64,000 bases of DNA from an uncultured Candidatus Binatia bacterium. Its GTDB lineage: Bacteria; Desulfobacterota; Binatia; Bin18. The stretch lies in assembly GCA_965220195.1 (NCBI GenBank), contig CBDCPK010000005.1:3029875-3093874 (forward strand), written 5' to 3'. The notes beneath the pieces are model-generated. The model had not been told where the DNA came from. It did not search any database and saw only the letters and a program-made list of their open reading frames with translations. The position numbers and the translations under genes were made by a program. The stretch's first letter is position 1. Each line of letters starts with the position of its first letter. Positions 29,224 through 46,152 of the stretch are shown here, one piece after another.

Positions 29224-29311
29224 GGAGGGATGGCCGAGCGGTTGAAGGCGCCGGTCTTGAAAATCGGTAGAGTCCAAAAGGCTCTCGTGGGTTCGAATCC
29301 CACTCCCTCCG
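29224..29311 (+). tRNA. tRNA-Ser (anticodon UGA)
   Basis: Acceptor stem GGAGGGA/TCCCTCC. D-arm GCCGAGCGGTTGAAGGC. Anticodon loop CTTGAAA. Long variable arm. T-arm GTGGGTTCGAATCCCAC. Discriminator G. Confidence 0.85.
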
Positions 29312-29413
29312 CGTCCCCTTGATTCCCTTTGTTCCCGCCCGTTTGCCCCAGCGCCCAACGATTGGTCAGGGAAGGGAATGTGATAATGTTAATATCAAGA
29401 GAGAGGAGTAGGG

Positions 29414-29590
29414 ATGTCGCGTCGTAAGATAGCCATGCCTGAGGAATTGGAGGAATCAACTCGGAGACTCAAGAGGATGACGACCCCACGGAGCAAGATC
29501 GGTAAGATGAAACAGACGGCTGATAAGCTATTGGAACGGAACAAACAACTGATTGATCGATTGAAGAAAGACAAGGATAAGGAAGAATGA
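29414..29590 (+). CDS. Hypothetical small basic coiled-coil protein (58 aa)
   Basis: GAGAGGAG RBS. Its stop overlaps the next start (ATGATGG). Low G+C. Confidence 0.3.
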   Translation: MSRRKIAMPEELEESTRRLKRMTTPRSKIGKMKQTADKLLERNKQLIDRLKKDKDKEE

Positions 29591-29880
29591 TGGGCTTCGT
29601 GTTTGAAAAAGAAGGAAAGGCATACTGTATGGTGCTTAAAAGAAATGGGGATAACGGGTTCAAAGAGGGATACTTTACAGACAGAGAAAAAGACTCCAAA
29701 GAGAACGAATACTTGATAAATGGCAAAAGCTGTAAACGTGCTCATAACCCAGGGTCTCCCGAGTCTGGCCCTTGGAAGCCGCTTGGTCCCGATTGGAGCG
29801 GGGTTGTCAGCGCCTACGAAAAGGATGGGTGGGTAAAATCTCCGCTGACAAGTTTTGAGGGTCCCATACGACGGCTGTAG
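29587..29880 (+). CDS. Hypothetical protein (97 aa)
   Basis: Translationally coupled to the upstream small ORF. Low G+C. Confidence 0.3.
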   Translation: MMGFVFEKEGKAYCMVLKRNGDNGFKEGYFTDREKDSKENEYLINGKSCKRAHNPGSPESGPWKPLGPDWSGVVSAYEKDGWVKSPLTSFEGPIRRL

Positions 29881-29892
29881 GGAAAGGGGCAA

Positions 29893-30123
29893 GTGATGAG
29901 CAAGCTACGTCAGTTCTTCCGGCCGGCAGAGAGGTATGAGGACGGCCGGTTTAAGACCTATGATGATATGAGTGAGGAAGGGAAAGCAGCTACGAAGTTG
30001 CGGCTGAAGTTTATAGGCATCATGCTCTTGATTACCGTGCTCGGTCTTCTCCTTGCATGGGAGGGGTACAAGCACAACAGAGAAATGGAAGCACAGGGGA
30101 AAGAAGGCTTCTATTTGTGGTGA
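29893..30123 (+). CDS. Hypothetical small membrane protein (76 aa)
   Basis: One predicted TM helix (IGIMLLITVLGLLLAW). GGGGCAAG RBS-like. Confidence 0.3.
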   Translation: MMSKLRQFFRPAERYEDGRFKTYDDMSEEGKAATKLRLKFIGIMLLITVLGLLLAWEGYKHNREMEAQGKEGFYLW

Positions 30124-30235
30124 CAACGAGGCTCTGAGGTAGAGATGAAATTCCCTAGAGGGTGTTAGGCACTTCTGACAACCTATTGATTTTATGTAGG
30201 TTTTTTACAGAGCCACACAATGCCGCCCTCTATTT

Positions 30236-30372
30236 TGCTGTTCCCGAGGGGCCCGAAAACGCGGCAGTTTCGGCAGCATGCCGGGAACAGTAACTGTCCA
30301 GCGATTCCAAAGGGTTAGCCCTTGAAAAAAAAGCTGTTCCGCTGTTCCCGACCTCTAATGGGGAACAGAAAG
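30236..30372. promoter_or_regulatory. Array of CTGTTCC/GGGAACAG inverted and direct repeats upstream of hsdR (candidate operator region)
   Basis: CTGTTCCCG-N35-CGGGAACAG with a nested CCGAAA/TTTCGG hairpin. Second palindrome CTGTTCCC-N11-GGGAACAG. Tandem CTGTTCCGCTGTTCCC and GAACAGAAAGAACAG. Confidence 0.4.
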
Positions 30373-30462
30373 AACAGAAAATATGACCATACGCTGACAA
30401 TGGACGAGGCGGTACTATGCTGGCGCAAGAGGGTGAGATGTGATGAATGAAAGAATCCCGCC

Positions 30463-32871
30463 ATGCAGAAGACCCGTCTCAGCGAAAGCGATGTCCGCGC
30501 CAAGTATATTACGCCAGCCCTGCATCAGGCCGGCTGGGACGAGGCGCAGATTCGGCGCGAGGTCAGCTTCACCAAGGGCCGCATTATCGTGCGCGGCAAG
30601 CTGGTCAGCCGGGGTGAGGGCAAGCAGGCCGATTACGTCCTGCACTACAAGCCCAACCTCCCCATTGCGCTGATTGAAGCCAAGGACAACATGCACGCGG
30701 TTGGTGATGGCATGCAGCAGGCCCTGGGCTATGCCGAGACGCTGCATATCCCCTTTGTTTTTTCCTCCAACGGCGAGGGTTTTGTGTTCCACGACCGGAC
30801 CGGCCTGAGCCCTGAGCGGGAAACCACCCTCAGCCTGGACGCCTTTCCCGCGCCGGCCGAGCTGTGGGAGCGCTATCGTGCCTGGAAGGACCTGACACCA
30901 GAGGCCGAGTCCGTTGTTTCGCAGGACTATTTCAGCGACGGCGGCGGGAAGACCCCGCGCTACTATCAGGTCAACGCCATCAACGCCGCCATTGAGGCTA
31001 TTGCCAAGGGCCGCGAGCGCCTCCTGCTGGTCATGGCTACCGGAACGGGCAAGACCTATACCGCCTTTCAGATCATCTGGCGGTTGTGGAAGGCGGGCGG
31101 TAAAAAGCGCATTCTGTTTCTGGCCGACCGCAATGTGCTGATTGACCAGACGATGGTCAACGACTTCCGGCCTTTCGGTCCGGCCATGGCCAAGCTGTCG
31201 CCCAGGGCCGGGACCATCGAGCGCGCGGACGGTGCCTCCGAGGACCTGAGCGCCGCGATTGACCGCAGGCGGCGGATTGACACCTCGTATGAAATCTATC
31301 TCGGCCTGTACCAGGCCCTGACCGGGCCGGAGGACCGTCAGAAAGTCTTTCAACAGTTTTCGCCCGGCTTCTTCGACCTGATTGTGATTGACGAGTGCCA
31401 CCGCGGCAGCGCGGCCGAGGATTCGGCCTGGCGGGAAATCCTGGACTATTTCTCGTCCGCCACCCACATTGGTCTGACGGCCACGCCCAAGGAAACGGCC
31501 TATGTGTCCAACATCGAATACTTTGGCGAGCCGGTCTATACCTACTCGCTCAAACAGGGCATCCACGACGGATTTCTGGCCCCCTACAAAGTCATCAAGG
31601 TGCATATCGACCGCGACGTAGAGGGCTACCGACCCGAATCCGGCCAGTTGGACCGGGACGGGCACGAGGTCGAGGACCGCCTCTACAACACCAAGGATTT
31701 TGACCGCAATCTGGTATTGGACGAACGGACCAAGCTGGTGGCCCGCAAGATCACCCAATTCCTGAAGGAAAGCGGCGACCGCTTCCAGAAGACGATTGTC
31801 TTCTGCGTTGACCGGGAGCACGCGGCCCGGATGCGCCAGGCCCTCATCAACGAGAACGCCGCCCTGGTAGGCGAGAATCACCGCTATGTCATGCGGATCA
31901 CCGGCGGCGACACCGAGGGGCAGGCTCAACTGGACAACTTCATTGACCCGGAATCCCGATACCCCGTATTGGTCACCACTTCGCGTTTGCTCTCGACCGG
32001 GGTGGATATCCAGACCTGCCGGCTCATCGTGCTTGACCGGGAGGTGGGCTCCATGACCGAGTTCAAGCAGATTGTCGGTCGCGGCACCCGTGTGCACGAA
32101 GACACACGCAAGTTCTACTTTACGCTGATGGATTTTCGGGGCGCGACCGGTCATTTTGCCGACCCGGACTTTGACGGCGAGCCGGTGCAGATATACGAAC
32201 CCGGCGAGGACGATCCCATCACGCCGCCCGACGACGAAACAACGCCCCCGCAACCGGGCGAGGATGAGACGATTGTAGATGGTCTGCCACCCGATAGGCA
32301 GAAACCCCGCAAGATATATGTGGATAGTGTGAGCGCCGGCATCGTTGCCGAGCGGGTTGAGTATCTGGACCAATACGGCAAGCTGGTCACCGAGTCCTTA
32401 CGTGACTTTACCCGAAAGGCGCTGAAAAAGCGCTTTGCCAGCCTGGACGATTTTCTCCGGCGCTGGAAAGCGGCCGAACGCAAGCAGGCCATTCTTGAGG
32501 AATTGGCTGCCGAGGGGCTGGCGCTCGACACGATTGCCCAGGAACTCGGCAAGGACCTCGACCCTTTTGACCTGATTTGCCATGTAGCTTTTGACGCCAA
32601 GCCGCTGACCCGGCGCGAACGGGCTGAAAACGTCAAGAAGCGCGACGTGTTCGCCAAGTACGGAGACCGGGCCCGCACCGTGCTCGACGCATTACTCGCC
32701 AAGTATGCCGACGAGGGCGTGCTGAATCTGGACGATACCAACGTGCTGCGCATCCCACCCTTGAGCAACCTGGGCACCCCGCTGCAGCTTCTTAAGGCCT
32801 TTGGCGGCAAGGGAAGGTTCGTCCAGGCCGTTCACGATCTGCAAGCCGAGCTGTATAGGGAGAGCGCGTAA
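30463..32871 (+). CDS. hsdR: Type I restriction enzyme R subunit (HsdR)
   Basis: The N-terminal SESDTRAKYITPALHQAGW motif is classic for HsdR. Walker A GTGKT and DECH box (VIDECHRGS). Helicase C domain. Confidence 0.9.
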   Translation: MQKTRLSESDVRAKYITPALHQAGWDEAQIRREVSFTKGRIIVRGKLVSRGEGKQADYVLHYKPNLPIALIEAKDNMHAVGDGMQQALGYAETLHIPFVFSSNGEGFVFHDRTGLSPERETTLSLDAFPAPAELWERYRAWKDLTPEAESVVSQDYFSDGGGKTPRYYQVNAINAAIEAIAKGRERLLLVMATGTGKTYTAFQIIWRLWKAGGKKRILFLADRNVLIDQTMVNDFRPFGPAMAKLSPRAGTIERADGASEDLSAAIDRRRRIDTSYEIYLGLYQALTGPEDRQKVFQQFSPGFFDLIVIDECHRGSAAEDSAWREILDYFSSATHIGLTATPKETAYVSNIEYFGEPVYTYSLKQGIHDGFLAPYKVIKVHIDRDVEGYRPESGQLDRDGHEVEDRLYNTKDFDRNLVLDERTKLVARKITQFLKESGDRFQKTIVFCVDREHAARMRQALINENAALVGENHRYVMRITGGDTEGQAQLDNFIDPESRYPVLVTTSRLLSTGVDIQTCRLIVLDREVGSMTEFKQIVGRGTRVHEDTRKFYFTLMDFRGATGHFADPDFDGEPVQIYEPGEDDPITPPDDETTPPQPGEDETIVDGLPPDRQKPRKIYVDSVSAGIVAERVEYLDQYGKLVTESLRDFTRKALKKRFASLDDFLRRWKAAERKQAILEELAAEGLALDTIAQELGKDLDPFDLICHVAFDAKPLTRRERAENVKKRDVFAKYGDRARTVLDALLAKYADEGVLNLDDTNVLRIPPLSNLGTPLQLLKAFGGKGRFVQAVHDLQAELYRESA

Positions 32872-32874
32872 TTC

Positions 32875-34335
32875 ATGTCCGTTCGCACTCTGGTCAAATC
32901 CATTCAGGACATCATGCGCCAGGACACGGGCGTGGACGGTGACGCCCAGCGTATCAGTCAGTTGTGCTGGATGTTCTTTCTCAAGATCATTGACGACCAG
33001 GACCAGGAAATGGAGATGGAGAGGGAGGGGGAGGGCTACACGTCCCCTATACCCGAGCAGTTTCAATGGCGGACCTGGGCGGCCGACCCCGAGGGCATGA
33101 CCGGTGAGGAACTGTTGAACTTTATCAACGCCGACTTGTTCCCGTCGCTGAAGAACCTGGAAATTGACCAGGCAGGAGCCCGTAGCCGCGTTGTGCGCGA
33201 TGTTTTTGAGGATGCCTACAACTACATGAAGTCCGGCCAGTTGGTGCGTCAGGTGGTCAACAAGATCAACGATATTGACTTTAATGACCTGACCGAGCGT
33301 CAGCATTTCGGCGACATCTACGAGCAGATTCTCAACGACCTGCAATCCGCGGGCAATGCCGGCGAGTATTATACGCCCCGCGCCGTAACCGCCTTTATGG
33401 TTGATCGTATCGACCCCAAGCCGGACGAGACCGTATTCGACCCGGCCTGCGGGACCGGTGGCTTTTTGACCTGTGCACTGCGTCACATGCGTGAGCGTTA
33501 TGCCAAACGGCCCGAAGACGAACCGACCATACAGGCTGCCCTGCGTGCCGTTGAAAAGAAGCAGCTCCCCCACATGCTGTGCGTGACCAATATGCTGCTG
33601 CACGGCGTTGAAGACCCGAGCTTTGTGCGCCACGACAACACCCTGGCGCGGCCCTACATTAGCTGGGAGCAAAAGCACCGGGTGGACATTGTCCTGACCA
33701 ACCCGCCTTTTGGCGGCAGGGAGGAAGACGGTATTGAGGCCAACTTTCCGAAAGAGTTTCGGACCAAGGAGACCGCAGACCTGTTCCTGGCTCTTATTAT
33801 CCGCCTGCTGAAGCCGGGTGGGCGCGCCGCCGTGGTGCTGCCCGACGGCTCGCTGTTTGGCGAGGGCGTCAAAACGCGGCTCAAGGAGCACTTGATGGAG
33901 GAGTGCAACCTGCATACCATCGTGCGCCTGCCCAATTCCGTGTTCCGGCCGTATGCCTCTATCGGCACCAATCTGCTGTTCTTTGAGAAGGGCGCACCAA
34001 CCACTGACATCTGGTTCTACGAGCACCGCGTGCCCGCAGGTCAGAAAGCCTATTCCATGACCAGGCCGATCCGGCTGGACCATTTACAGCCCTGCATCGA
34101 CTGGTGGGGTGGGGCGGAGCGCACGGACCGCACGGAAACGGAGCGCGCCTGGAAGGTGACCGCCGAAGCCGTCAAGGCGCGCGGCTACAACCTGGACATC
34201 AAAAACCCGCATACCCAGGCAGACGACCTCGGCGACCCGCAAGAACTGCTGGCCAAGCTCAGCGCAACCGAGGCCGAGGTCACGGACTTGCGGGACCAGT
34301 TAAAGGCGATATTGGCCGAGGCGTTGCTGCGGTAA
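32875..34335 (+). CDS. hsdM: Type I restriction-modification N6-adenine DNA methyltransferase M subunit (HsdM)
   Basis: NPPFGG catalytic motif, SAM-binding FDPACGTGGFL, and the HsdM N-terminal domain. Starts 4 nt after the hsdR stop. Confidence 0.9.
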   Translation: MSVRTLVKSIQDIMRQDTGVDGDAQRISQLCWMFFLKIIDDQDQEMEMEREGEGYTSPIPEQFQWRTWAADPEGMTGEELLNFINADLFPSLKNLEIDQAGARSRVVRDVFEDAYNYMKSGQLVRQVVNKINDIDFNDLTERQHFGDIYEQILNDLQSAGNAGEYYTPRAVTAFMVDRIDPKPDETVFDPACGTGGFLTCALRHMRERYAKRPEDEPTIQAALRAVEKKQLPHMLCVTNMLLHGVEDPSFVRHDNTLARPYISWEQKHRVDIVLTNPPFGGREEDGIEANFPKEFRTKETADLFLALIIRLLKPGGRAAVVLPDGSLFGEGVKTRLKEHLMEECNLHTIVRLPNSVFRPYASIGTNLLFFEKGAPTTDIWFYEHRVPAGQKAYSMTRPIRLDHLQPCIDWWGGAERTDRTETERAWKVTAEAVKARGYNLDIKNPHTQADDLGDPQELLAKLSATEAEVTDLRDQLKAILAEALLR

Positions 34336-34395
34336 GGGCCGCTTGCAATCCACCGTTTCAGCCCCTCTCTCGCTCTCCTCTGTGGCCTTCATATC

Positions 34396-34456
34396 CCCTC
34401 CTTGGAGGGGTGGCCCGAAGGGCCGGGGTGGGTTCCTTTTCGCATCACACGTCCCG
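34396..34456. repeat. Third (inverted) copy of the 43-bp GGAACCCACCCC unit fused to the GTGGGTTCCTTTTCGCATCACACGTCC element
   Basis: CCCCTCCTTGGAGGGGTGGCCCGAAGGGCCGGGGTGGGTTCC is the reverse complement of 3819-3861. It is followed by a near copy of 3955-3985. Confidence 0.55.
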
Positions 34457-34593
34457 AGAGGAGAGAAGAGCACAGGCCTGTCCTTTACCACCGTATTGGA
34501 ACGCCTCCGGCTCATCCAACCTGCGGAACGAGTTTGATGCATACGGCTATTCCCCCTAAATTTGACTGATCCTAGTCATAAGGGGAATCACTC

Positions 34594-34890
34594 TTGAATA
34601 AATCCCGTCAAGCCAGGCAGACCGGCCCGGCACGGACTTCCGGCTGGAAGCTGGGAGAGGCCAAGGCAAAGTTCAGTGAACTCGTTCGCCTTGCCGCGTC
34701 CGGGCAGCCGCAACGGGTCACGGTTCACGGGAAGGACGCCGTGGTCATCGTCGCGGCAGACACATTCGAAGCCCTCCAGGCGCGGGAGCAATCGGGCAGC
34801 TTACACGAACTCCTGTCCCAATCTCCGCTGAGCCGTATCACGTTCGGTGGAGATAGTGTTCGGAGTCCGGTCCGTGAGTGTGCGTTGTGA
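34594..34890 (+). CDS. Phd/YefM-family antitoxin-like protein
   Basis: WKLGEAKAKFSELVR...VTVHGKDAVVIV matches the Phd/YefM N-terminal fold. TTG start after an AAGGGGAA RBS. Confidence 0.55.
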   Translation: MNKSRQARQTGPARTSGWKLGEAKAKFSELVRLAASGQPQRVTVHGKDAVVIVAADTFEALQAREQSGSLHELLSQSPLSRITFGGDSVRSPVRECAL

Positions 34891-34936
34891 ATAGCGCTTG
34901 CCTCTCTCGTCTTTCTATTTCACAATGGTCTCCATG

Positions 34937-35149
34937 AACACGGTCACTGTTCGCCTGGATGCAGAGCTTGCCCTTGAGTTGACAAAACTCGCGAAACGTA
35001 CGGGACGCCCCAAAAGCGAGTTGATTCGCCGTGCGTTACGCCGCCAACTGGCATTGGCTCGTTTTGAAGAACTGCGTCAGGGTGTCGCGCCGTTCGCAGA
35101 GGCCAGAGGGTGGCTTACGGATGAAGACGTTTTCCAGAACGTCTCATGA
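34937..35149 (+). CDS. Ribbon-helix-helix (CopG-like) antitoxin
   Basis: MNTVTVRLDAELALELTKLAKRTGRPKSELIRRAL is a typical RHH. Its stop overlaps the vapC start. Confidence 0.6.
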   Translation, partial: NTVTVRLDAELALELTKLAKRTGRPKSELIRRALRRQLALARFEELRQGVAPFAEARGWLTDEDVFQNVS

Positions 35150-35541
35150 GGGTATTCTTGGACACCAACGTGCTGGTTGCCGCCTACGCGACGCGCGGAC
35201 TTTGTGAGGATGTCTTTCGAGTCATATTAGCAGAACACGAACTCGTCGTGAGCGAGACCGTGCTCGCCGAATTTGAGCGCGTCCTGGTGCAGAAGCTCCG
35301 CTTGCCTCTTCCGCAAGTAAAAACACTGTCATCTTTCTTACGAAGACAGGCCGACATCGTTGACCCTGTCGCTCCCTCCGTGTGGCCGAAACGTGACCCG
35401 GACGACCGATGGGTCGTTGCGGCAGCGATAGAGGGAGGCGTTGATTTTCTTGTCACTGGTGATCGTGACCTGCTTGAAGTCGCTGCTGAAGTGCCCGTTT
35501 CCATCGTCTCGCCGCGAACGTTCTGGGAGCAACTTCGTTAG
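35146..35541 (+). CDS. vapC: VapC-family PIN-domain toxin
   Basis: MRVFLDTNVLVAA N-terminus, with conserved Asp/Glu positions later in the sequence. Confidence 0.8.
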   Translation: MRVFLDTNVLVAAYATRGLCEDVFRVILAEHELVVSETVLAEFERVLVQKLRLPLPQVKTLSSFLRRQADIVDPVAPSVWPKRDPDDRWVVAAAIEGGVDFLVTGDRDLLEVAAEVPVSIVSPRTFWEQLR

Positions 35542-35678
35542 TCCGCAGGGTGGCTGAGGAAAATGTCAGGTGAAGCTTCGCTCACTTGGCCTACGAGGCT
35601 GTTGGCCGGTTACACTCCTAAAGCATTGCCAAAAAGTAGCCTATACGCTACTGGAGGGTATGCCTGGGAGATGAGCAT

Positions 35679-35999
35679 ATGGCAAGGCGCACCATTCCGT
35701 ACGAAGACCTCCTCTATCAGGACCTCCAAGACCCCGAAGAGGCTGTGGCGTATCTGAACGCTGCCCTGGACGACGAATATGCACAGGGGGCAGAGGTCTT
35801 TCTCTTAGCCCTCCGTGATGTTGCCAAGGCTCGTGGTATGAAACAACTCGCTCAGGACACGCAACTCAGCCGGGAGAGCTTGTACCGAACATTGTCCCGT
35901 AAGGGGAACCCTCGCTTTTCCACGCTTGAGGCCGTGTTGAAGAGTCTTGGGCTGAAACTGAGTGTGACGGTGAAGCCCCCGGAAACAAAGGCTGCCTGA
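35679..35999 (+). CDS. HigA-family addiction-module antidote protein (orphan)
   Basis: DPEEAVAYLNAALDD...LLALRDVAKARGM...SRESLYRTLS matches the TIGR02684-like antidote family. No killer partner is detected upstream. Confidence 0.6.
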   Translation: MARRTIPYEDLLYQDLQDPEEAVAYLNAALDDEYAQGAEVFLLALRDVAKARGMKQLAQDTQLSRESLYRTLSRKGNPRFSTLEAVLKSLGLKLSVTVKPPETKAA

Positions 36000-36005
36000 C
36001 CTCCG

Positions 36006-36065
36006 CGTTACCTCTTCAATGAATGCCGAACACCTGCTCACCCACTTCGACCGCATAGCCGACGC
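36006..36065 (+). repeat. Direct repeat 1: duplicated 5' end of hsdS (about 50 bp plus GCCGACGC)
   Basis: CGTTACCTCTTCAATGAATGCCGAACACCTGCTCACCCACTTCGACCGC matches 36804-36852 with two mismatches. Confidence 0.7.
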
Positions 36066-36109
36066 GGCGCAGGTGACGCTTCGCTCGCCTAGGCTACGAG
36101 GCTGCCGAT

Positions 36110-36604
36110 ATGACTAAACCACGCGTGTATGTTGAGACCACGATTCCCAGCTTTTACCACGAAGAGCGCTCTGCTCCCGACATCGTAGCGCGCCGGGAAT
36201 GGACGCGGCGATGGTGGGACAGTGCGCCCGAGCACTACGAGCTTGTCACCAGCCCGGCCGTTCTGGACGAGCTGGCCCGCGGGATCCCGGAACGCAGTGA
36301 GAGACGCCTGTCGCTGGTGCGCAATCTCCCGCTCCTGCCCGTCGAATTGGCTATCACCGAGATCGTCCAAGGGTATATCAGGCACAAGCTGATGCCGGCG
36401 GATCCTGGTGGTGACGCCTTGCACTTGGCGCTCGCCTCCTACCACAAATGCGACTTTCTGGTAACGTGGAATTGTCGACATCTGGCAAACGCGAACAAGT
36501 TTGGCCATATCCGCCGTGTGAATACGATGCTCGGCCTTTTTATTCCGGCGCTCGTGACCCCGTTGGAACTCTTTGGAGGGAGCGATGAAACAGAATCAGA
36601 GTGA
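36110..36604 (+). CDS. PIN-like domain protein (putative VapC-like toxin)
   Basis: C-terminal DALHLALASYHKCDFLVTWNCRHL resembles the PIN C-terminal motif. The N-terminus (VYVETT) has Glu in the first acidic position. Confidence 0.5.
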   Translation: MTKPRVYVETTIPSFYHEERSAPDIVARREWTRRWWDSAPEHYELVTSPAVLDELARGIPERSERRLSLVRNLPLLPVELAITEIVQGYIRHKLMPADPGGDALHLALASYHKCDFLVTWNCRHLANANKFGHIRRVNTMLGLFIPALVTPLELFGGSDETESE

Positions 36605-36782
36605 CCCGGTGATTGATGAGATTCGAGAAGTGCGGCACCGCATCTCGGCGTGCTTTGGCCATGACCCCACACGGTTGGTAGCCTTCTACATGGAAATGCA
36701 GAAGCAGTACCAGGACCGGCTGATTGAGACCGCAAAGAGTTCTCAGGATAAGGATAACCAGCAATCTGACACGGCGCTTTAA
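36585..36782 (+). CDS. Small partner protein of the PIN-like gene (putative antitoxin), 65 aa
   Basis: Overlaps the PIN-like gene's 3' end by 20 nt. Charged helical protein. Confidence 0.4.
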   Translation: MKQNQSDPVIDEIREVRHRISACFGHDPTRLVAFYMEMQKQYQDRLIETAKSSQDKDNQQSDTAL

Positions 36783-36803: not shown

Positions 36804-36863
36804 CGTTACCCCTTCAATGAACGCCGAACACCTGCTCACCCACTTCGACCGCCTCGCCGACGC
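36804..36863 (+). repeat. Direct repeat 2: authentic 5' end of hsdS
   Basis: Partner of 36006-36065. Contains the hsdS start codon at 36817. Confidence 0.7.
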
Positions 36864-38601: not shown

Positions 38602-39894
38602 ATGGAACTAGAGAAGATAAAAAGCGTGGATGAGTACCTACGCTCTTTACAATCTTTGCGCAATGCACATGCCTACAGGTATAGGGGACAATCTAACAGT
38701 GCATGGCCGGTATGCTCCTCATGGGCTCGCGCATTTAAAGGCCAAACACATTGGGACTGCCTTTCCTACCATTCAGACCTGATACGCGATTTTCCTTCCT
38801 TTGATTCTCTACCTGGATACGTAAGAGACCTTTCCAGAGAGAATCCGAGTCTTCTTACAGATTGGGATAAAGTAGCAATTATACAGCATTATGGAGGTGA
38901 GACTGGAAAAAAGACTATACTGACCGACTTTACTATAAGGCCGCTTATTGCCCTATGGTTCGCTTGTCAAGAAAAGGAGCACCGGAAAGAAGACGGAAAA
39001 GTCTTTGCTGTTTCAATTGATATTTTAGACGAGGTAGGGCTCCCGCATATCGATGATTATATTCGGGGCAACCATTCAGATTTGTACACTCTCGATAGAT
39101 CGTACCTATTTCCTACAAGTTTTCAGTACAATCCCAGAGGCAATACCAGAAGTCCTCACAAAAGCTATGTTTCTCGGATCGATAAGCAAGCATCATCCTT
39201 TGTCCTAGGGATTGAGAGGGTTGAGGAGGCTAAATGCAAATCAGTCATAATTGAGGCCAGCAGCAAGAAGCGAATACTCAATGAGTTGCGCTACTTTTTC
39301 TCCATATCAGAGAAAGCGCTCATGGATGATTGGTATGCTCTTGGCGAGGCTGTAGCGAACGGCAAGGAGGTGTCTACCGACGGTTTTACCGATGCTGAGT
39401 ACTATAACTTAGCGAAGGATATTAGTTTGTTACATAGACAACCGAGGGCTGGGCGTCCTTATTTTGAGGAAGCCCTCCAATACTGGCATTCTCAGAGAGA
39501 TCGTAGAGAGGCAATGGTTAAAGCCAGTTACTCTGATGACGCCGACCGAGAAAGAGTGCGTTGTTACATGAATCAAGCAGGAGCGCACTATTACATGAAT
39601 ACGGCTTGGACGATCTACTGTCTTGAGGATGCAGATGAGGGGGAGACACGGCGTGCTTGTGGTTATGCCCACAAGGGTTTTGATATGGCTAGCTATGATC
39701 CACAGCGTCCCGGATTCGCTGTAGTCTATGCCCTTTGTCTACTGAGATTGAATAAGGAAAAAGCCGCATACGATTTATGCAGGAGAGAACTCGATTTCTA
39801 CGAGCACTCTGCCCCCGCCTTCTGTACGGGCAAGAATTCTCCTTCTATTGATAAATTGAGAAGGATAGTGAACATTTATGAGGCTCACCATTAG
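38602..39894 (+). CDS. FRG-domain protein
   Basis: The N-terminal YRYRGQSNSAWPV motif is the FRG signature. Low G+C. GAAGGTGA RBS. Confidence 0.65.
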   Translation: MELEKIKSVDEYLRSLQSLRNAHAYRYRGQSNSAWPVCSSWARAFKGQTHWDCLSYHSDLIRDFPSFDSLPGYVRDLSRENPSLLTDWDKVAIIQHYGGETGKKTILTDFTIRPLIALWFACQEKEHRKEDGKVFAVSIDILDEVGLPHIDDYIRGNHSDLYTLDRSYLFPTSFQYNPRGNTRSPHKSYVSRIDKQASSFVLGIERVEEAKCKSVIIEASSKKRILNELRYFFSISEKALMDDWYALGEAVANGKEVSTDGFTDAEYYNLAKDISLLHRQPRAGRPYFEEALQYWHSQRDRREAMVKASYSDDADRERVRCYMNQAGAHYYMNTAWTIYCLEDADEGETRRACGYAHKGFDMASYDPQRPGFAVVYALCLLRLNKEKAAYDLCRRELDFYEHSAPAFCTGKNSPSIDKLRRIVNIYEAHH

Positions 39895-40080
39895 CAATCT
39901 CTCATTGATTAACTAGACGCTCACACCTCTGGCAACCCAACCCCACGAACTCCACAAAATTTCCCTAGAAGCAGCCTGACTTCATCTGGACGATTTTCAC
40001 TTGTCCGATTGCGAGCGGATGGGATGCAAGCCAGGGACTCCTTCACCCTCACCCTCTATAGGGGAGAGAGAATAGGACAG

Positions 40081-40125
40081 GGACAGGGCTGGGAATGTCG
40101 GATTACGCCGCCGGTTCATCCGACC
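40081..40125 (+). repeat. 45-bp direct repeat, copy a (GGGAATGTCGGATTACGCC...)
   Basis: About 85 percent identical to 41703-41745 in the same orientation. Confidence 0.55.
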
Positions 40126-40183
40126 TACGGGACGCTCTTGAAGCCGTTGACAACATGTCCCATATCCGGGACACTATTCTTCC

Positions 40184-40516
40184 GTGAGGCCCGCCTTCTT
40201 TCATCCCAAAGCGAGAGACATCTTGCGGACTTTTCCAGAAACAGTACGAAAAGAGTTGGGCAAGGCTATTATAGATTTGCAGAAAGGGGCTTCTGTAGGC
40301 CCGCCCCTCTCTCGGCCTATGCCGTCCGTGGCTCTAGGGACAAATGAACTCAGAATCCGTGATCGTACGGGAATTTATCGAACCTTTTACTATACAAAGG
40401 CAGCGCGTGGGGTCTTGATCTTTCACGCGTTTATTAAAAAGACGCAGAAAACGCCGTTACGAGAGATTGAGACCGGAAGGAAACGGCTTAAGGAGATGCT
40501 CCATGAACTCAGCTAA
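40184..40516 (+). CDS. higB: HigB-like toxin (RelE/ParE superfamily, Gp49-like)
   Basis: LRIRDRTGIYRTFYYTKAARGVLIFHAFIKKTQK matches the Gp49/HigB family. GTG start. Confidence 0.65.
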   Translation: MRPAFFHPKARDILRTFPETVRKELGKAIIDLQKGASVGPPLSRPMPSVALGTNELRIRDRTGIYRTFYYTKAARGVLIFHAFIKKTQKTPLREIETGRKRLKEMLHELS

Positions 40517-40802
40517 ACCTGTCGTTGCAGAAGACGCGACTGCGCTGGCGGAAATTTTAGGACTGACTCCCATTGATGGAGCGGAAATCCAGTTGCGGAG
40601 CGACTTGAATGACAAAATTATTGAGGTTGTGGAGAAAAGCGGACTCACCCACGCTCAGGTTGCCAAACTGGCTCGGACTTCCCGGTCCCGTATGACGGCA
40701 ATTCTCAACCGTAATACCCAAGATGTCTCTACTGACCTGATGCTCCGCATCATGGCCGGCTTAGGCTATCGGGCCAAACTGACCTTCTCACGGGTGGCGT
40801 AG
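40503..40802 (+). CDS. higA: HigA-like XRE-family HTH antitoxin
   Basis: HTH motif LTHAQVAKLARTSRSRMTAIL. ATGA overlap with the higB stop. Confidence 0.7.
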   Translation: MNSAKPVVAEDATALAEILGLTPIDGAEIQLRSDLNDKIIEVVEKSGLTHAQVAKLARTSRSRMTAILNRNTQDVSTDLMLRIMAGLGYRAKLTFSRVA

Positions 40803-40986
40803 CCGACTTCTTCAGCCCCGTAGCCTCCGTCTCATCCGACCTCTGGAACTCAGCGGGTTCGTTGCCTGATATGGACTAGGCGGAAGATGGCACATCTAAG
40901 AAGTTGACAAGCTAATTTGAGACGCATATGGTTTTGCTGTGACTGACAGAGTTGCCTGAGCGACTCGCTGAAGTCAGTCGCCTTCA

Positions 40987-41020
40987 ACGCTAACTTTTGG
41001 TGGTTAGCGTTTTTCTTTTT
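40987..41020 (+). terminator. Rho-independent terminator (8-bp stem ACGCTAAC/GTTAGCGT plus T-run)
   Basis: Perfect 8-bp stem with an 8-nt loop, followed by TTTTTCTTTTT. The same bases encode the Lys-rich C-terminal tail of the convergent minus-strand PIN gene. Confidence 0.5.
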
Positions 41021-41292
41021 ACGGATTTTCCCGGTCGGTTTTTTCTTGTCTTTTTGTCATCCAGGTCGGTCAGGAGCCTGTCGATTTCGTCGTCTGTCCG
41101 TCCGTGGAGCCGGACGAGACGCGGACGGCGCAACACGGACGAATACTCGTTGAGCAGGTCGTCCGACATGAGGTAAAGGAGGTCGCCATCAAGCATGGCG
41201 TCCAGTATCCGTGCTGGGGGACTGCTCGAATCCGCGCCGATCAGCCCCGAAACGATGACATTGGTGTCGATAATACAAGCCTTCGGCGTCAT
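40990..41292 (-). CDS. PIN-domain toxin (VapC-like)
   Basis: ACIIDTNVIVSGL PIN N-terminal signature. Basic C-terminal tail. Confidence 0.7.
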   Translation of the reverse strand: MTPKACIIDTNVIVSGLIGADSSSPPARILDAMLDGDLLYLMSDDLLNEYSSVLRRPRLVRLHGRTDDEIDRLLTDLDDKKTRKNRPGKSVKRKTLTTKS

Positions 41293-41334
41293 CGGCTCTC
41301 TTCCGCACCTCTCGAACTTGGCCGCTGACGCCGC

Positions 41335-41580
41335 TCAGCGCGACTGCTCGTCACGAAAACGTCTTGTTTCCTCGACTGCCAGGGCCATCGCGTCGGGAGC
41401 GTTCAATCCAAACTGCGCTCGCGCCTTGGCGACAATCTCCTTGGCGGTATCGTAGGGTCGGATCCCTCTCAGTTCCAGGCTTTCCTCGATGATTGAAGCC
41501 ATGGAACGATTCTGCCGGGCCGCCGCTTCCTTCAGTGCCCGGTGTGTCCGGTCGGCTAAACTGATGGTCAGGCGGGGCAT
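41335..41580 (-). CDS. Ribbon-helix-helix antitoxin partnering the PIN toxin
   Basis: MPRLTISLADRTHRALKEAAARQNRSMASIIEESL is an RHH fold. Located upstream of the toxin on the same strand. Confidence 0.6.
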   Translation of the reverse strand: MPRLTISLADRTHRALKEAAARQNRSMASIIEESLELRGIRPYDTAKEIVAKARAQFGLNAPDAMALAVEETRRFRDEQSR

Positions 41581-41702
41581 GAGGATACACTCCTGTTCAT
41601 AAGCGCCGATTCAATGCTGCAAGCACCATAACACCATACCGACAATCTACATGTCCCACTCTTCAAAGGGAACTCTCCCCCTCGCGAGTCTCGGGGATGT
41701 CG

Positions 41703-41745
41703 GATTACGCCCCCGGCTCATCCAACCTATAGGGCTATGGGCGAC
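41703..41745 (+). repeat. 45-bp direct repeat, copy b (GGGGATGTCGGATTACGCC...)
   Basis: Partner of 40081-40125. Confidence 0.55.
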
Positions 41746-41861
41746 CCGACTCCCCTCTCGGGACGTGTAATACATATTAGGCTGTGACCGATGGAGTAGG
41801 TCCCTCTGAAAGCGGAGTCAACAGGGGCTGGGGGAGAGCGACGGGGTTCATTGCATCGTAT

Positions 41862-44510
41862 TCAACGTCGTTTCTCGGTAAACTCTTGTCGGATTTCTGT
41901 CACGGTATCCCTGATCTCCGCAGGTAGGGGTTCAAGTTCTTCGCCCAATTCTTCCCGTACAGCGTGCCAGAGCGGCTCCATTGGCTCGGCCAGTCCGGCT
42001 TCCTCCATTATCTGCTTGACGCGCGGGCCGTGGCCGGCGGCGACGGCCCGGATCAACGACTCTGTTAAACTAGGCCATTCCTGTTCCTGGAAGTCGCCGC
42101 CGATGCGTAGCGCGTGTTCGATCTGGTCCAGCGCTTCTGTCCATTGGCCACGATGAGCCAAGACATCGGAGAGCGTTTGAAAAGTGCTCGGATTCTTCGG
42201 CCCCAGTTCTATCGCGCGGCGGGCGCATTCCTCGGCCTCCAGCAGACGCGCGGCGTCATTCTGGTCAAGAATCGCTGTTGCCAGAATACGCCATGCTTCA
42301 TCATACGTCGGTGCGATATCCGTCGCCCTTCTACAACCAGCTTCCGCTTCATCGTGCCTTCCAAGTACGTTCGATAACCGACCGCCAGCTATCAGCCATT
42401 TTGCGACTGGACGACGTAGTTCCATCGGGTCGTTTGAGCGTACATAATCCGAGGAACGTTGAAAAATGGCGGCTACGTCTTCGTACCGTTTCAGGCCACC
42501 AATGCTAATGGCTTTTCTGCCTAGCGCTCTAATGGCTACATCACGCAGTTCCTTTGGGTCCTCCGTGCGGACATACTCGGTGGTCCGCTCCCAAGCAGCG
42601 GTGGCTTTTTCGTTGCGTCCCAGCTTGGCAAGAAGGTCACCCTTGGCGTTGAACGCCTCGGCGGCCAATTGGCGTAAGTCCACAGAGTCATCTGGATGGA
42701 CGTATTCCGTGACACGCTGCCAAGCAGCGATAGCCTCTTCATGACGACCCAATTTGGTGAGAGCCATGCTGTTGGTCCCGTGAGCCCAGGCGGCCATGTT
42801 GCGCAATTCTACCGAGTCATCCGGACGGATATATTCCGATGCCTGCTCCCATGTGGCGATGGCGTCTTCGTGCCGCTCCAGTTGGAAAAAAGCAAGGCCC
42901 TTGCTTGCCAATGCCGCGACGACTACGCCGCGTAATTCTGGCGAACCAGACGGACTCGTCTGCTCCAAGACACGATCGGAGGCGGCTATGGCGTCTTTGA
43001 AACGGCCCTCTTCAATCAGCGTGACGCTGCGTTCCACCCACTCGACAAGACGCTCTAGGCTTGCTTTATCTTGGCCTGCAAACGCCTCCTGAATTTTCTC
43101 AACGACCGGCGCGTTCGGACTGATAAAGTTCTTAGCAAGATCGAGCGCCTCGCGTTGCCAGTCCTCCCGCCCTTTGAAGTCCGTATCTCCAGCTACGTAG
43201 CCAGCCAGGATGGTGAGCCAATCGGACGCTTCTCCGCCGTGTGAGCCGTTCACTCGTAACGCCGACAGTACCGCCGGATACATCATCCGCATTCCGGATG
43301 GACCGAAAAGATCGTGAAGGAAGGCGACGAGTCGCTCTAAGCGGTGCCGGCCTGCACGCGAGAAGCGTAGCAGATAGTAGATGTTGTAAAATCGATCGCT
43401 GACTTCATATCGTATCCGCTTTGCTCCTCGTAGCCGGATCTCTTTTGCATAGCCCTTTTCCATAAGTTGCTTGAGTTGGGCGCTAGCGTGCGAGGAGTTT
43501 AGATTCGCGGCGTCGGCAACCTCCCTCGCCAGCATCGGCTTCCATCCCTCCGCGAGACAGTGAAATACTTTGCGGGACTGACCCGGTAATTCCTCGATCC
43601 GGGCTTTGAAATAAGGCGTCTGTTCGTCGATGAGCCGTTCCAGATCCTCAAAGGCAGAGCCGAGCGGCGATTCGATCAGGAGCCGACAGGCAAGAACCAG
43701 CAACCGCGGGTTCCCGCCCGTCAGCCGACGCAGGGTCTCCAGCCGGCCACGTTCATGACGCAGGGTTTCCGCAATTCCTGGCTTGCCGTCGCAAGCCGCG
43801 AGTGTTTCAAGTATGCGGAGAGTCTCTTCCTGCCCCAGACCTTCGAGCAGGAAGAGCCGGAAGAACTCGTAAAACGGCTCGCCGTGTCCTCGGATGGCTT
43901 CGAAGACGGCGTTAGCAGAACCGACCAACAGGATATTCGGACATTCAATCAGACTGGCCCGCAACGCGTGAACTTCGCGCTCGTCGCGCAACTGCTCGAA
44001 GACGGCGTCGAGGTTCTCGACGAACAGGATCAACCGTTTGCCGCTTGCCCGGCAAAAGTCCATAAGCGCTGCGAGCGCGTACGCGGCGAGCCGTTCCGTG
44101 TCTCTTTCGTCCTGGGCTAGAGCGTTGGCTCTGTCCTCCCACTGCGAGTCCTCGGTGGCGCGGGTCAGATGGCGCAGAGCGACAAGCCAGAAGTCCGCCA
44201 AGTTACCGACATCGTAGCTTTCCTCGTAGAACGGGACGGGTTGCCAGTTCGCGGCAAGGTCGGGCGACTCTCCAACTGCGTGCAGAAACCGTAGCCCAAG
44301 GGTAGTTTTTCCCATTCCGCGCGGGCCGATGAGCAGCATATGCTGACACGGTCGTCCGCGCTGCTGCTCGCGAATCAGGCGGAGCATCTCTGCGAGAGTT
44401 TTTTTACGAGCGACGAACGACGCCTTCAACTCGTCAGGAGTAAGCTGGGCCGGGTTGTACAGACGCTGGCGGATCATGACGCGACACTCCCGTGGTATTT
44501 CCGCCACCAT
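41862..44510 (-). CDS. STAND-like P-loop NTPase with winged-helix and C-terminal TPR array (882 aa)
   Basis: Walker A GPRGMGKTT. Walker B hhhhD(VEN)LD. Winged-helix region. At least 8 TPR-like repeats with a recurring A..W/Y..A pattern. An alternative start at 44477 gives a 4-bp overlap with the upstream gene. Confidence 0.7.
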   Translation of the reverse strand: MVAEIPRECRVMIRQRLYNPAQLTPDELKASFVARKKTLAEMLRLIREQQRGRPCQHMLLIGPRGMGKTTLGLRFLHAVGESPDLAANWQPVPFYEESYDVGNLADFWLVALRHLTRATEDSQWEDRANALAQDERDTERLAAYALAALMDFCRASGKRLILFVENLDAVFEQLRDEREVHALRASLIECPNILLVGSANAVFEAIRGHGEPFYEFFRLFLLEGLGQEETLRILETLAACDGKPGIAETLRHERGRLETLRRLTGGNPRLLVLACRLLIESPLGSAFEDLERLIDEQTPYFKARIEELPGQSRKVFHCLAEGWKPMLAREVADAANLNSSHASAQLKQLMEKGYAKEIRLRGAKRIRYEVSDRFYNIYYLLRFSRAGRHRLERLVAFLHDLFGPSGMRMMYPAVLSALRVNGSHGGEASDWLTILAGYVAGDTDFKGREDWQREALDLAKNFISPNAPVVEKIQEAFAGQDKASLERLVEWVERSVTLIEEGRFKDAIAASDRVLEQTSPSGSPELRGVVVAALASKGLAFFQLERHEDAIATWEQASEYIRPDDSVELRNMAAWAHGTNSMALTKLGRHEEAIAAWQRVTEYVHPDDSVDLRQLAAEAFNAKGDLLAKLGRNEKATAAWERTTEYVRTEDPKELRDVAIRALGRKAISIGGLKRYEDVAAIFQRSSDYVRSNDPMELRRPVAKWLIAGGRLSNVLGRHDEAEAGCRRATDIAPTYDEAWRILATAILDQNDAARLLEAEECARRAIELGPKNPSTFQTLSDVLAHRGQWTEALDQIEHALRIGGDFQEQEWPSLTESLIRAVAAGHGPRVKQIMEEAGLAEPMEPLWHAVREELGEELEPLPAEIRDTVTEIRQEFTEKRR

Positions 44511-45670
44511 TCCCGCAAGAGATTCGAGCGGAATTTCAGGTGACTGTCTTCCTGTTTTACGTAACCGTCGGCCTCCAGGTCGCGGAGCACGGACTGGAAC
44601 GTTTGCTCGTTGCGCTGTCGCAACTCTTCGAGTTCCGCGAGAGCCACACCGTCCTCTCGCCGGCAGACGCGGCTCAGGATATCACGTGCCGCTTCGTGTT
44701 CGTTCTCGTCAAATGCAATTTCGAGGCGCGCTGCATAATGGTCCAGATGGGCGGTGCCACTGGCTCCCGCCAGACGTTCCGCGAAACACCGCTCAATCAC
44801 TTCCAACGAAACGTGAGAAGCTTCGCCTCTGCAAGCATCGCGAAGCGCCGAGAAGAAAAGCTGAACATGGTACGGAACGGGCTCCCGCAGCAGGTCCAGG
44901 ATATGCGTGATAGCTTTTTCGTCGAGAGGAAAACTAGAATCACCGCCCAGCCCTTTCAGAAATTCGACAGCGGTCGGCCTGTTCCACGAGTCCAGGCGGA
45001 ACGGAGAGAGATCGTTAATCAGCCCTGAAAGGCCCGCGCGGCGCAGGACTCCTTCAAGTCCGATCGATCCGCCGACAAGTGTACGGACCCTGGTGCGCAA
45101 TTCTGGCGCTTGGCGCCAAGACCGAAGCCTGGACAGTAGTAATTCAGCATCATGTTTCCGCTCCTCATTCCGCAGCATCCGCGAAAGGAGGAGCGGTAGT
45201 TCATCAATGATGATCAGAAGATTCCCGCCGGTGTCCGGCAGGCTCGTCAGGCGCGCCGTGAGTTGGTCCGCAGCGTGGTCCCACTCACGGCCAATCGCCC
45301 GTCTGAGTTCGACACGCACTATGCCAGTATCAACACTGGCGGACAGGCGTCCAAAGACACCCTTGATGGCGTTCGAGAATGGAATCGCCTCGAAACGGCT
45401 TCGATATTGAGGATTGGCTGCCAGAGCAGCGATAATCGCCGCCATGCAGTCCGCCGGGTCGTCCCCACTTTCAACATCCACATAGATGACATCCCAGTTC
45501 TCGCGCGGCGCGCGGCGGAGCTCCAGCATTAAGCTGGTCTTGCCCACCCGCCTGGGGGCGAGCATTAGAATGTGCTCTCCTTGTTCCAGCTTTTCCCAGA
45601 GGCGGGCTATCTCGTAATCTCGTCCATAGAGGTCGTCGCCGACGACTGCCTGGCCAGTGACGTTGCGCAT
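44474..45670 (-). CDS. AAA+/ATPase_2-type P-loop ATPase with C-terminal winged-helix-like region (398 aa)
   Basis: Walker A APRRVGKTS. Walker B LLIIIDE. Same family architecture as the N-terminal half of the downstream gene. AGGAGA RBS and an AT-rich promoter with a TTGCCAAAAA duplication. Confidence 0.7.
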   Translation of the reverse strand: MRNVTGQAVVGDDLYGRDYEIARLWEKLEQGEHILMLAPRRVGKTSLMLELRRAPRENWDVIYVDVESGDDPADCMAAIIAALAANPQYRSRFEAIPFSNAIKGVFGRLSASVDTGIVRVELRRAIGREWDHAADQLTARLTSLPDTGGNLLIIIDELPLLLSRMLRNEERKHDAELLLSRLRSWRQAPELRTRVRTLVGGSIGLEGVLRRAGLSGLINDLSPFRLDSWNRPTAVEFLKGLGGDSSFPLDEKAITHILDLLREPVPYHVQLFFSALRDACRGEASHVSLEVIERCFAERLAGASGTAHLDHYAARLEIAFDENEHEAARDILSRVCRREDGVALAELEELRQRNEQTFQSVLRDLEADGYVKQEDSHLKFRSNLLREWWRKYHGSVAS

Positions 45671-45953
45671 ATATGAATCTCCTGTGGAGATTTTAGTGTG
45701 GCACCACGATAAATGACAAAGATATTTTTGGCAATAGATTTTTTGGCAAAAATTCTGATGTTATCTTTTGGTAAGGAGAAAATACTGCTAGGACAAAGAC
45801 TTAAAATCGCTCGTGAAGCGTAAGCCACCAAACGGCAGGAATGCGTTTGATCGTTCCGTTCAAGGGGAGGCGAGGCTACGAGGAGAGCCGATCAGATTTC
45901 TTTGGGGGGCAAAAACGTATCCACGAAACCACGAGGGGAAGTCACAGAGACGT

Positions 45954-46055
45954 CGCTCAGCGCGATTGCTCTTCACGAAAACGTCTTGTTTCCTCGACTG
46001 CCAGAGCCATCGCGTCGGGAGCGTTCAATCCAGACTGCGCTCGCGCCTTGACGAC
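45954..46055 (-). pseudogene. Truncated duplicate (3' about 100 bp) of the RHH antitoxin gene at 41335-41580
   Basis: About 90 percent identical to 41332-41433. No start codon and no intact ORF. Confidence 0.6.
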
Positions 46056-46152
46056 AAGACTAAGGCAAACTGTCCTCCCGCCTCCAGTTTAACAGAAGTA
46101 GTCTTATCGGACGTAATCTGCCTCAACGTAGTGCGAGACCTACTGTCCGGCA

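Follow-up and report, generated by a model that had tools for sequence, protein, structure and literature searches.

The 64 kb stretch of DNA analysed here, referred to below as the window, comes from the genome of one uncultured Candidatus Binatia bacterium. Between a tRNA-Ser(UGA) gene and a gene of the SDR family it holds a 16.8 kb segment (29313 to approximately 46140) in which a Type I system of restriction and modification (RM), several toxin-antitoxin (TA) modules, an FRG-domain gene and a pair of STAND ATPase genes lie together (Table 1). Our analysis of this genome was confined to the window. It was compared with about 30 related loci (numbered with the prefix L), all from uncultured Candidatus Binatia, which were gathered by exact-protein look-ups and one scan of species-representative genomes; most of these extend just 10 kb beyond the tRNA. 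ARAGORN and Rfam were used for tRNA genes, Pfam, NCBIfam, PADLOC and PHROG for protein-coding genes, and tblastn for relics and integrases. The tRNA was the sole Rfam match across the segment, which we call the island.

Gene content was largely as an initial annotation, made from the sequence alone, had described it. All three subunits of the Type I RM system (HsdR, HsdM and HsdS) are full length by PADLOC, so that the system is complete as claimed, and the FRG gene and the STAND pair are both recognised by Pfam. The same annotation had counted five or more TA modules. Six units are present, but only four of them are complete pairs and two are orphan antitoxins; a 109-nt relic of a further antitoxin was also found. 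Two open reading frames (ORFs) on the minus strand (36089-36508 and 35805-36056) and three on the plus strand (35563-35757, 40009-40347 and 45841-46092) were set aside as non-genes, as they carry no domains and overlap better-supported genes or relics.

Table 1. Features of the island and its borders, in window coordinates.
Feature	Position	Strand	Basis or remark
tRNA-Ser(UGA)	29224..29312	+	ARAGORN; Rfam, 59 bits; final base is the left island boundary
Left-end footprint of integrative element, 31 nt, C/T-rich, ending TTCCCGCCCGTT	29313..29343	+	25/31 identical to pre-integrase sequence of L004
Small ORFs s1 (29414-29590), s2 (29587-29880), s3 (29893-30123)	29414..30123	+	No family match
DnaB/AAA_25 replicative helicase relic, last 52 codons and stop	30228..30386	+	tblastn, 94% aa identity to L002 residues 499-550 of 550
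hsdR	30463..32871	+	Pfam ResIII, EcoEI_R_C, HSDR_N; PADLOC REase_I, 5-801/807
hsdM	32875..34335	+	Pfam N6_Mtase, HsdM_N; PADLOC MTase_I, 1-490/491
Motif M copy 1 (34501-34522) and motif X (34444-34465)	34444..34522	+	Intergenic
Orphan Phd/YefM antitoxin	34594..34890	+	Pfam, NCBIfam
VapBC-type pair: RHH antitoxin ORF 34898-35149 (probable start 34934), PIN toxin 35146-35541	34898..35541	+	Pfam RHH_1, PIN_3/PIN
35-nt repeat pair	35567..35601 and 36070..36104	+	Brackets HigA and hsdS 5' relic
Orphan HigA-like antitoxin, HI1420 family	35679..35999	+	Pfam, NCBIfam dnstrm_HI1420
hsdS 5' relic, 60 nt	36006..36066	+	Repeat of hsdS start
Putative TA pair: PIN-domain gene 36110-36604 and overlapping 65-aa ORF 36585-36782	36110..36782	+	Pfam PIN, 5.7e-6
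hsdS, two target recognition domains	36817..38532	+	Pfam Methylase_S x2; PADLOC Specificity_I, 1e-126, 37-588/589
FRG-domain protein, candidate single-gene defence system	38602..39894	+	Pfam FRG, 2.9e-13; PADLOC PDC-S15, 7e-20
Motif M copy 2	40091..40127	+	Contains right junction of 9.7-kb RM/TA/FRG block
HigBA-type pair: Gp49/HigB-like toxin 40184-40516, HTH_37 antitoxin 40467-40802	40184..40802	+	Pfam; common to L011 and L012 at 96%
Motif M copy 3, degenerate	40821..40842	+	
VapBC-type pair: RHH antitoxin 41335-41580, short PIN_3 toxin 40990-41292	40990..41580	-	Pfam; common to L011 and L012
Motif M copy 4 (41693-41729) and inverted motif X (41750-41771)	41693..41771	+	Just inside left end of STAND insert
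Two-gene STAND ATPase operon: 398-aa AAA_16/wHTH protein 44474-45670, AAA_16-TPR ORF 41862-44510	41862..45670	-	Pfam AAA_16
Antitoxin relic, 3' end of a second RHH gene, 109 nt	45949..46057	-	94% identical to 41327-41435
Spacer on the species' side of the island	46058..46152	.	All-species conservation begins about 12 nt ahead of SDR stop codon (approximately 46141)
Right flank: SDR 46153-46878, PTPS 46902-47738	46153..47738	-	Syntenic in at least 15 related species

The limits of the island are set by comparison with close relatives. In comparison with 12 contigs from sister strains of the species, homology runs out at 29312, the last base of the tRNA, whose 3' 33 nt are invariant in alignment at occupied and empty sites alike; on the right side, homology to same-species contigs picks up again at 46057. 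Each outer junction was found again in an independent sample, the left in L039, which matches 29283-30256 at 99.8%, and the right in L013, and the two are therefore not assembly artefacts. The initial annotation had placed the island at 29224-46100, directly behind tRNA-Ser(UGA), with core-like SDR and PTPS genes resuming at about 46.15 kb. ARAGORN and Rfam confirm the tRNA, the SDR gene opens a flank conserved across species, and the boundaries seen in relatives bear out the proposed limits to within a few tens of bases.

Beyond the species, the gene order BFN-PDZ, SnoaL, tRNA-Ser, gap, SDR, PTPS and phosphoesterase is kept in 18 related species. The gap between tRNA and SDR measures 18 nt in L028, 47 nt in L021, 151 nt in L022 and up to more than 9 kb in others. 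In the species with an empty site, the tRNA is joined to the SDR stop codon via 18-47 nt, so that the comparison with related genomes proposed in the initial annotation does uncover the empty site (L028 and L021). Relatives sharing one gene order with no indel at the tRNA, which it had named as the contrary case, are not what is seen; the cargo differs and empty sites exist. What other species carry at the site is unrelated to the island described here: another Type I RM system behind the helicase gene that sister strains also carry, a DUF6884 gene with a DNA methylase gene, or DUF499 with a protease, and elsewhere an IS66 transposase or PhoX. Groups of species also share short segments immediately inside the right boundary, beside SDR, namely an ORF of 86-93 aa in L017, L018, L029 and L015 and the remnant of a second SDR-like gene in L019, L020, L023, L025 and L026; the hotspot thus has nested, lineage-specific layers.

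The segment adjoins the 3' end of a tRNA and has an empty counterpart among close relatives, which supports its reading as a horizontally acquired mosaic island at a tRNA-Ser hotspot. Its clustering of a Type I RM system, an FRG gene (PDC-S15 candidate) and TA modules between core genes, with content that varies, further identifies it as a predicted defence island. The opposite proposition, that no island exists and that ancestral core DNA has been deleted in the relatives, draws on an overall G+C content equal to the background. It is effectively refuted by the 18 species in which unrelated cargo of widely differing size occupies one point, an 18-nt empty site included, as well as by the mobile-element genes in sister strains and a composition that is mosaic at the level of genes.

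That composition deserves some care. The island as a whole has 55.55% G+C against 55.1% for the window. The initial annotation had reported that G+C drops after the tRNA; this is true just for the first 0.9 kb (29313-30226, 48.5%), the FRG gene (45.5%, with a third-position G+C fraction, GC3, of 0.44) and the two variable domains of hsdS (approximately 45%). The hsdR and hsdM genes reach 60% G+C with a GC3 of 0.775, and the core, represented by 27 flanking genes, has a GC3 of 0.617 ± 0.05. The island is a mosaic of high-GC and low-GC blocks with no single foreign signature. The absence of a distinct overall signature had been named in advance as counting against an island; it is indeed absent, and the comparative evidence establishes the island regardless. 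Average G+C is evidently a poor means of spotting islands when blocks of higher and lower G+C offset each other. Elsewhere in the window, a DUF6602 gene (5752-6684) forms a low-GC patch of its own (46.4% G+C, GC3 0.46 versus 0.62 for the core) and may be a small acquired gene.

At this site, sister contigs that match the window at 96.3-99.7% across the flanks display no fewer than six alternative configurations, and in two of these an integrase adjoins the same tRNA. The shortest, L011, consists of the tRNA, a gene for a 550-aa DnaB/AAA_25 helicase, HigBA, VapBC and SDR. In L002 the helicase gene is followed by hsdR-hsdM, a TA set of its own, hsdS and FRG. The content of L001 is the helicase gene together with HicB, a gene for a REase-ARP nuclease and no more than a fragment of hsdM, and in L014 the site holds unrelated ORFs over 2.1 kb. 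The helicase gene is carried by L001, L002, L003, L006 and L011. Measured against L011, the window has 29313-30226 in place of the 5' 90% of this gene, a further 9.7 kb just past its stop codon (30414-40116, comprising the RM system, the TA block and FRG) and 4.4 kb upstream of the RHH antitoxin gene at 41335-41580 (41677-46056, comprising the STAND pair), where a spacer of 31 nt has been replaced. At least five blocks vary independently between strains: the small ORFs s1-s3; the helicase relic; hsdR-hsdM with the TA genes, hsdS and FRG; HigBA with VapBC; and the STAND pair. Since near-identical strains differ to this extent, turnover at the site is recent and ongoing.

Pfam detected no integrase, recombinase or transposase domain in the window, and when the sister strains' integrases, AlpA, Rep and primase served as tblastn queries, nothing was returned there at E<0.1 (integrases, E>0.3). 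No second copy of the tRNA 3' end was found in the window or in any related locus with probes of 16-45 nt and mismatches allowed, and no direct repeat of an attachment (att) site was detected for any element, including that of L012, in which the island is fully covered, or at the right boundary of the window. A 16/20 match to the tRNA 3' end in L004 (11507-11526) was considered as attR and rejected as chance; it falls within an ORF, and the sequence past it has no counterpart in other islands. With regard to the missing integrase and the missing tRNA repeat at the far boundary, then, the initial annotation was correct.

Sister strains are more informative. In L004 a gene for a 426-aa P4-type integrase (Arm-DNA-bind_3, Phage_int_M and Phage_integrase) lies 55 nt after the tRNA, with AlpA and a primase-helicase behind it. 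In L012 the tRNA is separated from a helicase gene missing its 5' half by a truncated integrase, AlpA and a rolling-circle Rep. The set typical of a P4-like satellite or an integrative and mobilizable element (IME), integrase with AlpA and primase/helicase, is present only in L004. The window has just the helicase relic, which corresponds in full form to a gene with Pfam DnaB and AAA_25 domains and matches to PHROG 19/906, phage replicative-helicase families. It also has the left-end footprint. A signature within that footprint, TTCC(C/T)RYC(C/T)GTT at +20 to +31 after the tRNA, is found at loci of the integrase type, the helicase type and the scar type, and not at empty sites. Footprint and helicase relic are read as the probable remains of integrative elements that used this tRNA. 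Two further loci bear on the signature: the 151-nt 'island' of L022 (11422-11572) opens with it and resembles the scar of a wholly deleted element, and L018 also has it (11433 onward).

The segment 29313-30226, which stands in place of most of the helicase gene, contains s1-s3, co-oriented ORFs of 58, 97 and 76 aa with no Pfam, PHROG or PADLOC match, the last of which seems membrane-spanning by sequence. Their arrangement was found in just one other short contig, L039, from a second sample, at 99.8% identity.

As integrase and att repeats are both absent and the helicase gene is truncated, the description of the island as immobilised is upheld, and the evidence supports the view that it has no visible means of excising as a unit from this genome. 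It might nevertheless be mobile in trans, as a satellite-like or cis-mobilizable element (CIME) that is excised or co-mobilised when an integrase element of the L004 or L012 type lands next to it at the tRNA. Such accretion-mobilisation has been described as a concept for IMEs and CIMEs, and it would suit both the tandem arrangement of L012, where an integrase element lies between the tRNA and the older HigBA/VapBC block, and the element-end footprint behind the tRNA in the window. However, no att-like repeat marks the far boundary or separates the tandem parts, and the helicase gene is cut at different points in the window and L012, which indicates deletion and not precise site-specific joins. 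We regard mobility of this kind as decidedly improbable.

In the window and L002 the shared RM block is 98.2% identical (90 mismatches in 4954 nt) as compared with 99.8% for the flank (7 in 3312), a divergence nine-fold above that of the flank, and the block thus has a history separate from it. Within HsdS, the first target recognition domain (TRD1; window 36987-37509, residues approximately 60-240) is only about 20% identical to its counterparts in L002 and L001, whereas the remaining protein is 92-100% identical. As TRD1 has been replaced between strains that are otherwise near-identical, these very probably recognise different sequences.

In addition, hsdS is parted from hsdM by 2.5 kb of TA genes, and each strain has its own set in this gap. 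The Phd antitoxin has a PIN partner in L001 which is missing from the window, and the two sequences cease to be homologous at the Phd stop codon. Of the PIN gene in the first VapBC-type pair (35146-35541), intact in the window, L002 retains no more than the first 35 nt. In L001 a gene for 75 aa, not present in the window, lies upstream of the HigA-type antitoxin, and hsdS follows directly after HigA. The 65-aa ORF of the second PIN unit, an unclassified partner, is 77% identical to an L001 ORF.

TA genes also occur at a second, small variable spot in the window, 3 kb upstream of the tRNA (25558-26155), between genes for an enoyl-CoA hydratase and a TrmI-like protein. The window, L002 and L005 have a domainless 183-aa ORF there, and L001, L007 and L011 a Phd and PIN pair; homology to the latter three begins only at 26155. 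In L003 (7964-8338, corresponding to window 26220-26274) the TrmI-like region is rearranged, with about 100 extra nt and matching segments that overlap by 55 nt, and no intact TrmI was called.

A candidate for the means of exchange is offered by the direct repeats that bracket modules of the island. Three pairs (109 nt at 94%, 83 nt at 82% and 35 nt at 86%) lie far beyond chance expectation. Three bracketing pairs of short direct repeats had led the initial annotation to propose an old, immobilised island whose cassettes are swapped by recombination between them. Remodelling by module replacement is shown directly through the comparison of strains. The repeats, real as they are, prove to be of differing kinds, mostly scars of gene ends or degenerate motifs resembling repetitive extragenic palindromic (REP) sequences. 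The 83-nt pair (36006-36088 and 36804-36886) is the leftover 5' end of an hsdS gene ahead of the unit of PIN gene and 65-aa ORF. The 109-nt pair consists of a resident antitoxin gene and an imported truncated copy, and is not found at both junctions of the STAND insert. In L044 the STAND pair is followed by an intact RHH gene, and the sequence after that gene matches window 45948-45871, beside the relic; the relic therefore arrived with the STAND fragment and is a scar, not a crossover site. Recombination between the two copies was also considered as the source of the L011 form and rejected, as the antitoxin gene would thereby lose its 5' half, and L011 has this half intact.

Other junctions are no more favourable to this mechanism. 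The STAND insert replaced a 31 nt spacer and its left join shows no homology, and the junctions at 30226/30227 and 35180 lack any repeat. Against an old age, moreover, speaks the variety of content (a minimum of six further configurations, with an integrase in two) among strains whose flanks are 96-99.7% identical. Two observations do fit: the exchange of TRD1, which is bounded by conserved hsdS repeats, and the right junction of the 9.7-kb block, which falls inside a copy of the REP-like motif described below; where this junction is unoccupied, L011 has a divergent copy. Together with the reality of the repeats and the missing integrase, these keep a predominantly repeat-driven history from being implausible, but we consider it unlikely; repeat-mediated exchange may account for particular joins and is not the general mechanism. 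Direct repeats within islands, in other words, can be scars of past joins and not exchange sites.

The motif in question, M (ACGCCNCCGGYTCATCCRACCT), spans 22-37 nt and has four copies, all on the plus strand and only between modules, where 0 would be expected by chance; no copy turned up in the 47 kb of the window that flank the island, or in the core on either side of 30 related loci. The strain breakpoint 40116/40117 lies inside copy 2, and a copy of M also occurs at the edge of the related STAND block in L044. On the minus strand, copy 2 presents GTAG followed by a 7-bp stem (GTCGGAT...ATCCGAC) and resembles the E. coli REP sequence GTAGGCCGGAT...; copies 1, 3 and 4 are degenerate. A second motif of 22 nt, X, accompanies M in one direct (34444-34465) and one inverted copy (41750-41771). 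The pair was rejected as transposon ends, because 34444-41771 does not behave as a unit in any strain (only 40117-41676 is present in L011) and REP-like motifs lie next to the arms. A likeness of M to a conserved region of hsdS (17/19 nt, inverted) was judged to be chance.

Copies that share one orientation, are restricted to the island and lie between modules could be dedicated recombination sites defining mobile cassettes, in the manner of integron attC sites or of REP sequences served by a REP-associated tyrosine transposase (RAYT). In an unrelated metagenome contig, L042 (2140-2226), two inverted copies of M do form a hairpin resembling that of a REP doublet (REPIN), with z = -5. Taken singly, on the other hand, the copies show no better folding than shuffled sequence (z = -0.2 to +1.3), and just one has the GTAG tag and stem. 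Inspection of M and its flanks revealed no GTTRRRY/RYYYAAC boxes, so that a role as attC was rejected, and neither an IntI nor a Y1/RAYT transposase gene was seen in the window. The high dispersed copy number and the RAYT that characterise REP and REPIN elements were not found in the window and 30 related loci; exact matches to M in the metagenome collection numbered only 4, and the other strain breakpoints lack the motif. A dedicated recombination site is, on this evidence, very improbable, even if an island-restricted REP-like motif is among the least ordinary items of the locus.

The STAND pair is another. The AAA_16-TPR gene has its probable true start at about 44480, which would give a protein of 872 aa and a 4-nt overlap with the stop codon of the upstream gene in the operon. 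The pair has no PADLOC match and does not have the architecture of Avs-like proteins: AAA_16 starts from residue 32 with no N-terminal effector domain, and sensor-like TPR repeats are present. Exact-sequence look-ups of the STAND-TPR ORF, of P0002 and of hsdM returned no record. At E≤1e-10 the operon has 892 homologues, and its two-gene form, encoding an AAA_16/wHTH protein of 398-399 aa and an AAA_16-TPR protein of approximately 870-950 aa, is kept at other loci (L044 6808-10619, L045 4805-8856 and L046 4808-8718). The block 41835-45753 is 90% identical in nucleotide sequence to L044, where its surroundings are quite different and share synteny with L046; the pair thus occupies one different syntenic locus in two other Binatia genomes, with TA fragments alongside. 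In a 7-Mb genome it adjoins HsdM, an AAA_15 ATPase and an SLFN/AlbA_2 gene, and at the present site it is missing from L011 and L012. The pair, which is unclassified and widely conserved, has moved between chromosomal loci. It is conceivable that the operon, with TA fragments always at its side, is an undescribed defence or abortive-infection system that moves without a recombinase of its own, with adjacent TA genes or REP-like motifs as portable recombination anchors, but we hold this to be a speculative and quite improbable account.

Taken together, the comparisons lead us to regard the locus as a composite, no-longer-autonomous island in the tRNA-Ser(UGA)/SDR hotspot, decayed from integrative elements, and we would put the probability of this reading at roughly 0.8. 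Integrase-bearing elements would have brought cargo to the tRNA, after which deletions and replacements would have left the island without the integrase and far att site and with little of the helicase gene. Content would now be exchanged by homologous recombination on imported DNA, via the conserved flanks, hsdR/M, the conserved regions of hsdS and the TA genes, together with illegitimate joins in intergenic DNA, at times at REP-like motifs. The predicted function is that of a Type I RM system with strain-differing specificity, accompanied by candidate defence genes (FRG/PDC-S15 and the STAND pair). Post-segregational killing by the interleaved TA modules would give the block stability and make its loss costly.

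Several points weigh against this account. Firstly, an att direct repeat is lacking for every element, even for L012 with its fully covered island, and as no att duplicate was found we infer integrase-mediated insertion from the position of the genes. Secondly, the islands of most species are without an integrase in the 10 kb covered, and some cargo may never have come on an integrative element. Thirdly, the direction of several events, such as insertion in the window as opposed to deletion in L011, requires a phylogeny to fix. Finally, the expression and activity of the RM and TA genes are predictions, and the defensive role of the FRG and STAND genes is suggested by a candidate profile and by gene neighbourhood; the STAND pair could be a regulator.

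Comparable arrangements are known from published work. Many defence hotspots lie at tRNA genes and many occupied sites have no identifiable mobile element or mobilisation function (PMC10121019, PMC10250203). For E. coli, 18 hotspots located at tRNA loci are reported, and 68% of the cases at one rich hotspot lack a detectable mobile genetic element (PMC10121019); the core defence hotspots of P. aeruginosa are islands flanked by core genes (PMC10250203). The Binatia site resembles both in its fixed core flanks, its variable cargo, the tRNA at its edge and its clustered defence genes, including Type I RM. It differs in its uncultured host and in cargo that includes an unclassified STAND pair, and our approximately 30 loci are too few for occupancy statistics. 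The gene sets of the sister loci L004 and L012 are like those of elements and satellites with P4-type integrases at tRNAs, of which the window keeps the left-end footprint and helicase relic, but not the integrase, AlpA, an intact replication gene or att repeats. Genes for capsid hijacking were not seen, although no search was aimed at them. CIMEs are likewise integrase-less remnants where integrase-bearing relatives insert, and L012 has the corresponding tandem; the flanking att sites that define a CIME are, however, absent from the window.

In clusters of PIN and RM genes, arrangement is not kept between close relatives (PMC5499597). The same holds for the TA and PIN genes on the strand shared by hsdM and hsdS, where arrangement varies and TRD1 is exchanged with conserved regions kept. 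Unlike known TA-embedded Type I RM systems, this one has five TA-type units that include two orphan antitoxins, together with an hsdS 5' relic, in one 2.5-kb gap, and unlike shufflon-type systems it has no invertase or phase variation of hsdS. Motif M is comparable to REP and REPIN elements with a GTAG tag (PMC3733652) with regard to the minus strand of copy 2 and the inverted doublet in L042. It is set apart from them by having four copies, all in the island and three of them degenerate, with no RAYT nearby and folding no better than chance. The locus thus falls short of a classical integrative island in two defining features, integrase and att repeats, and it likewise lacks features that define an integron, a CIME and a REPIN array, so that none of these readings holds.

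The island represents a familiar class of genome feature that is now documented in Binatia as well, and it leaves the current understanding of islands unchanged. It nevertheless provides a strain-resolved case of a tRNA-linked defence hotspot in a phylum known only from metagenomes. At a single site, integrase-bearing, helicase-only and fully decayed states can be seen side by side, with exact boundaries and a true empty site, and turnover of the cargo continues after the integrase has been lost.

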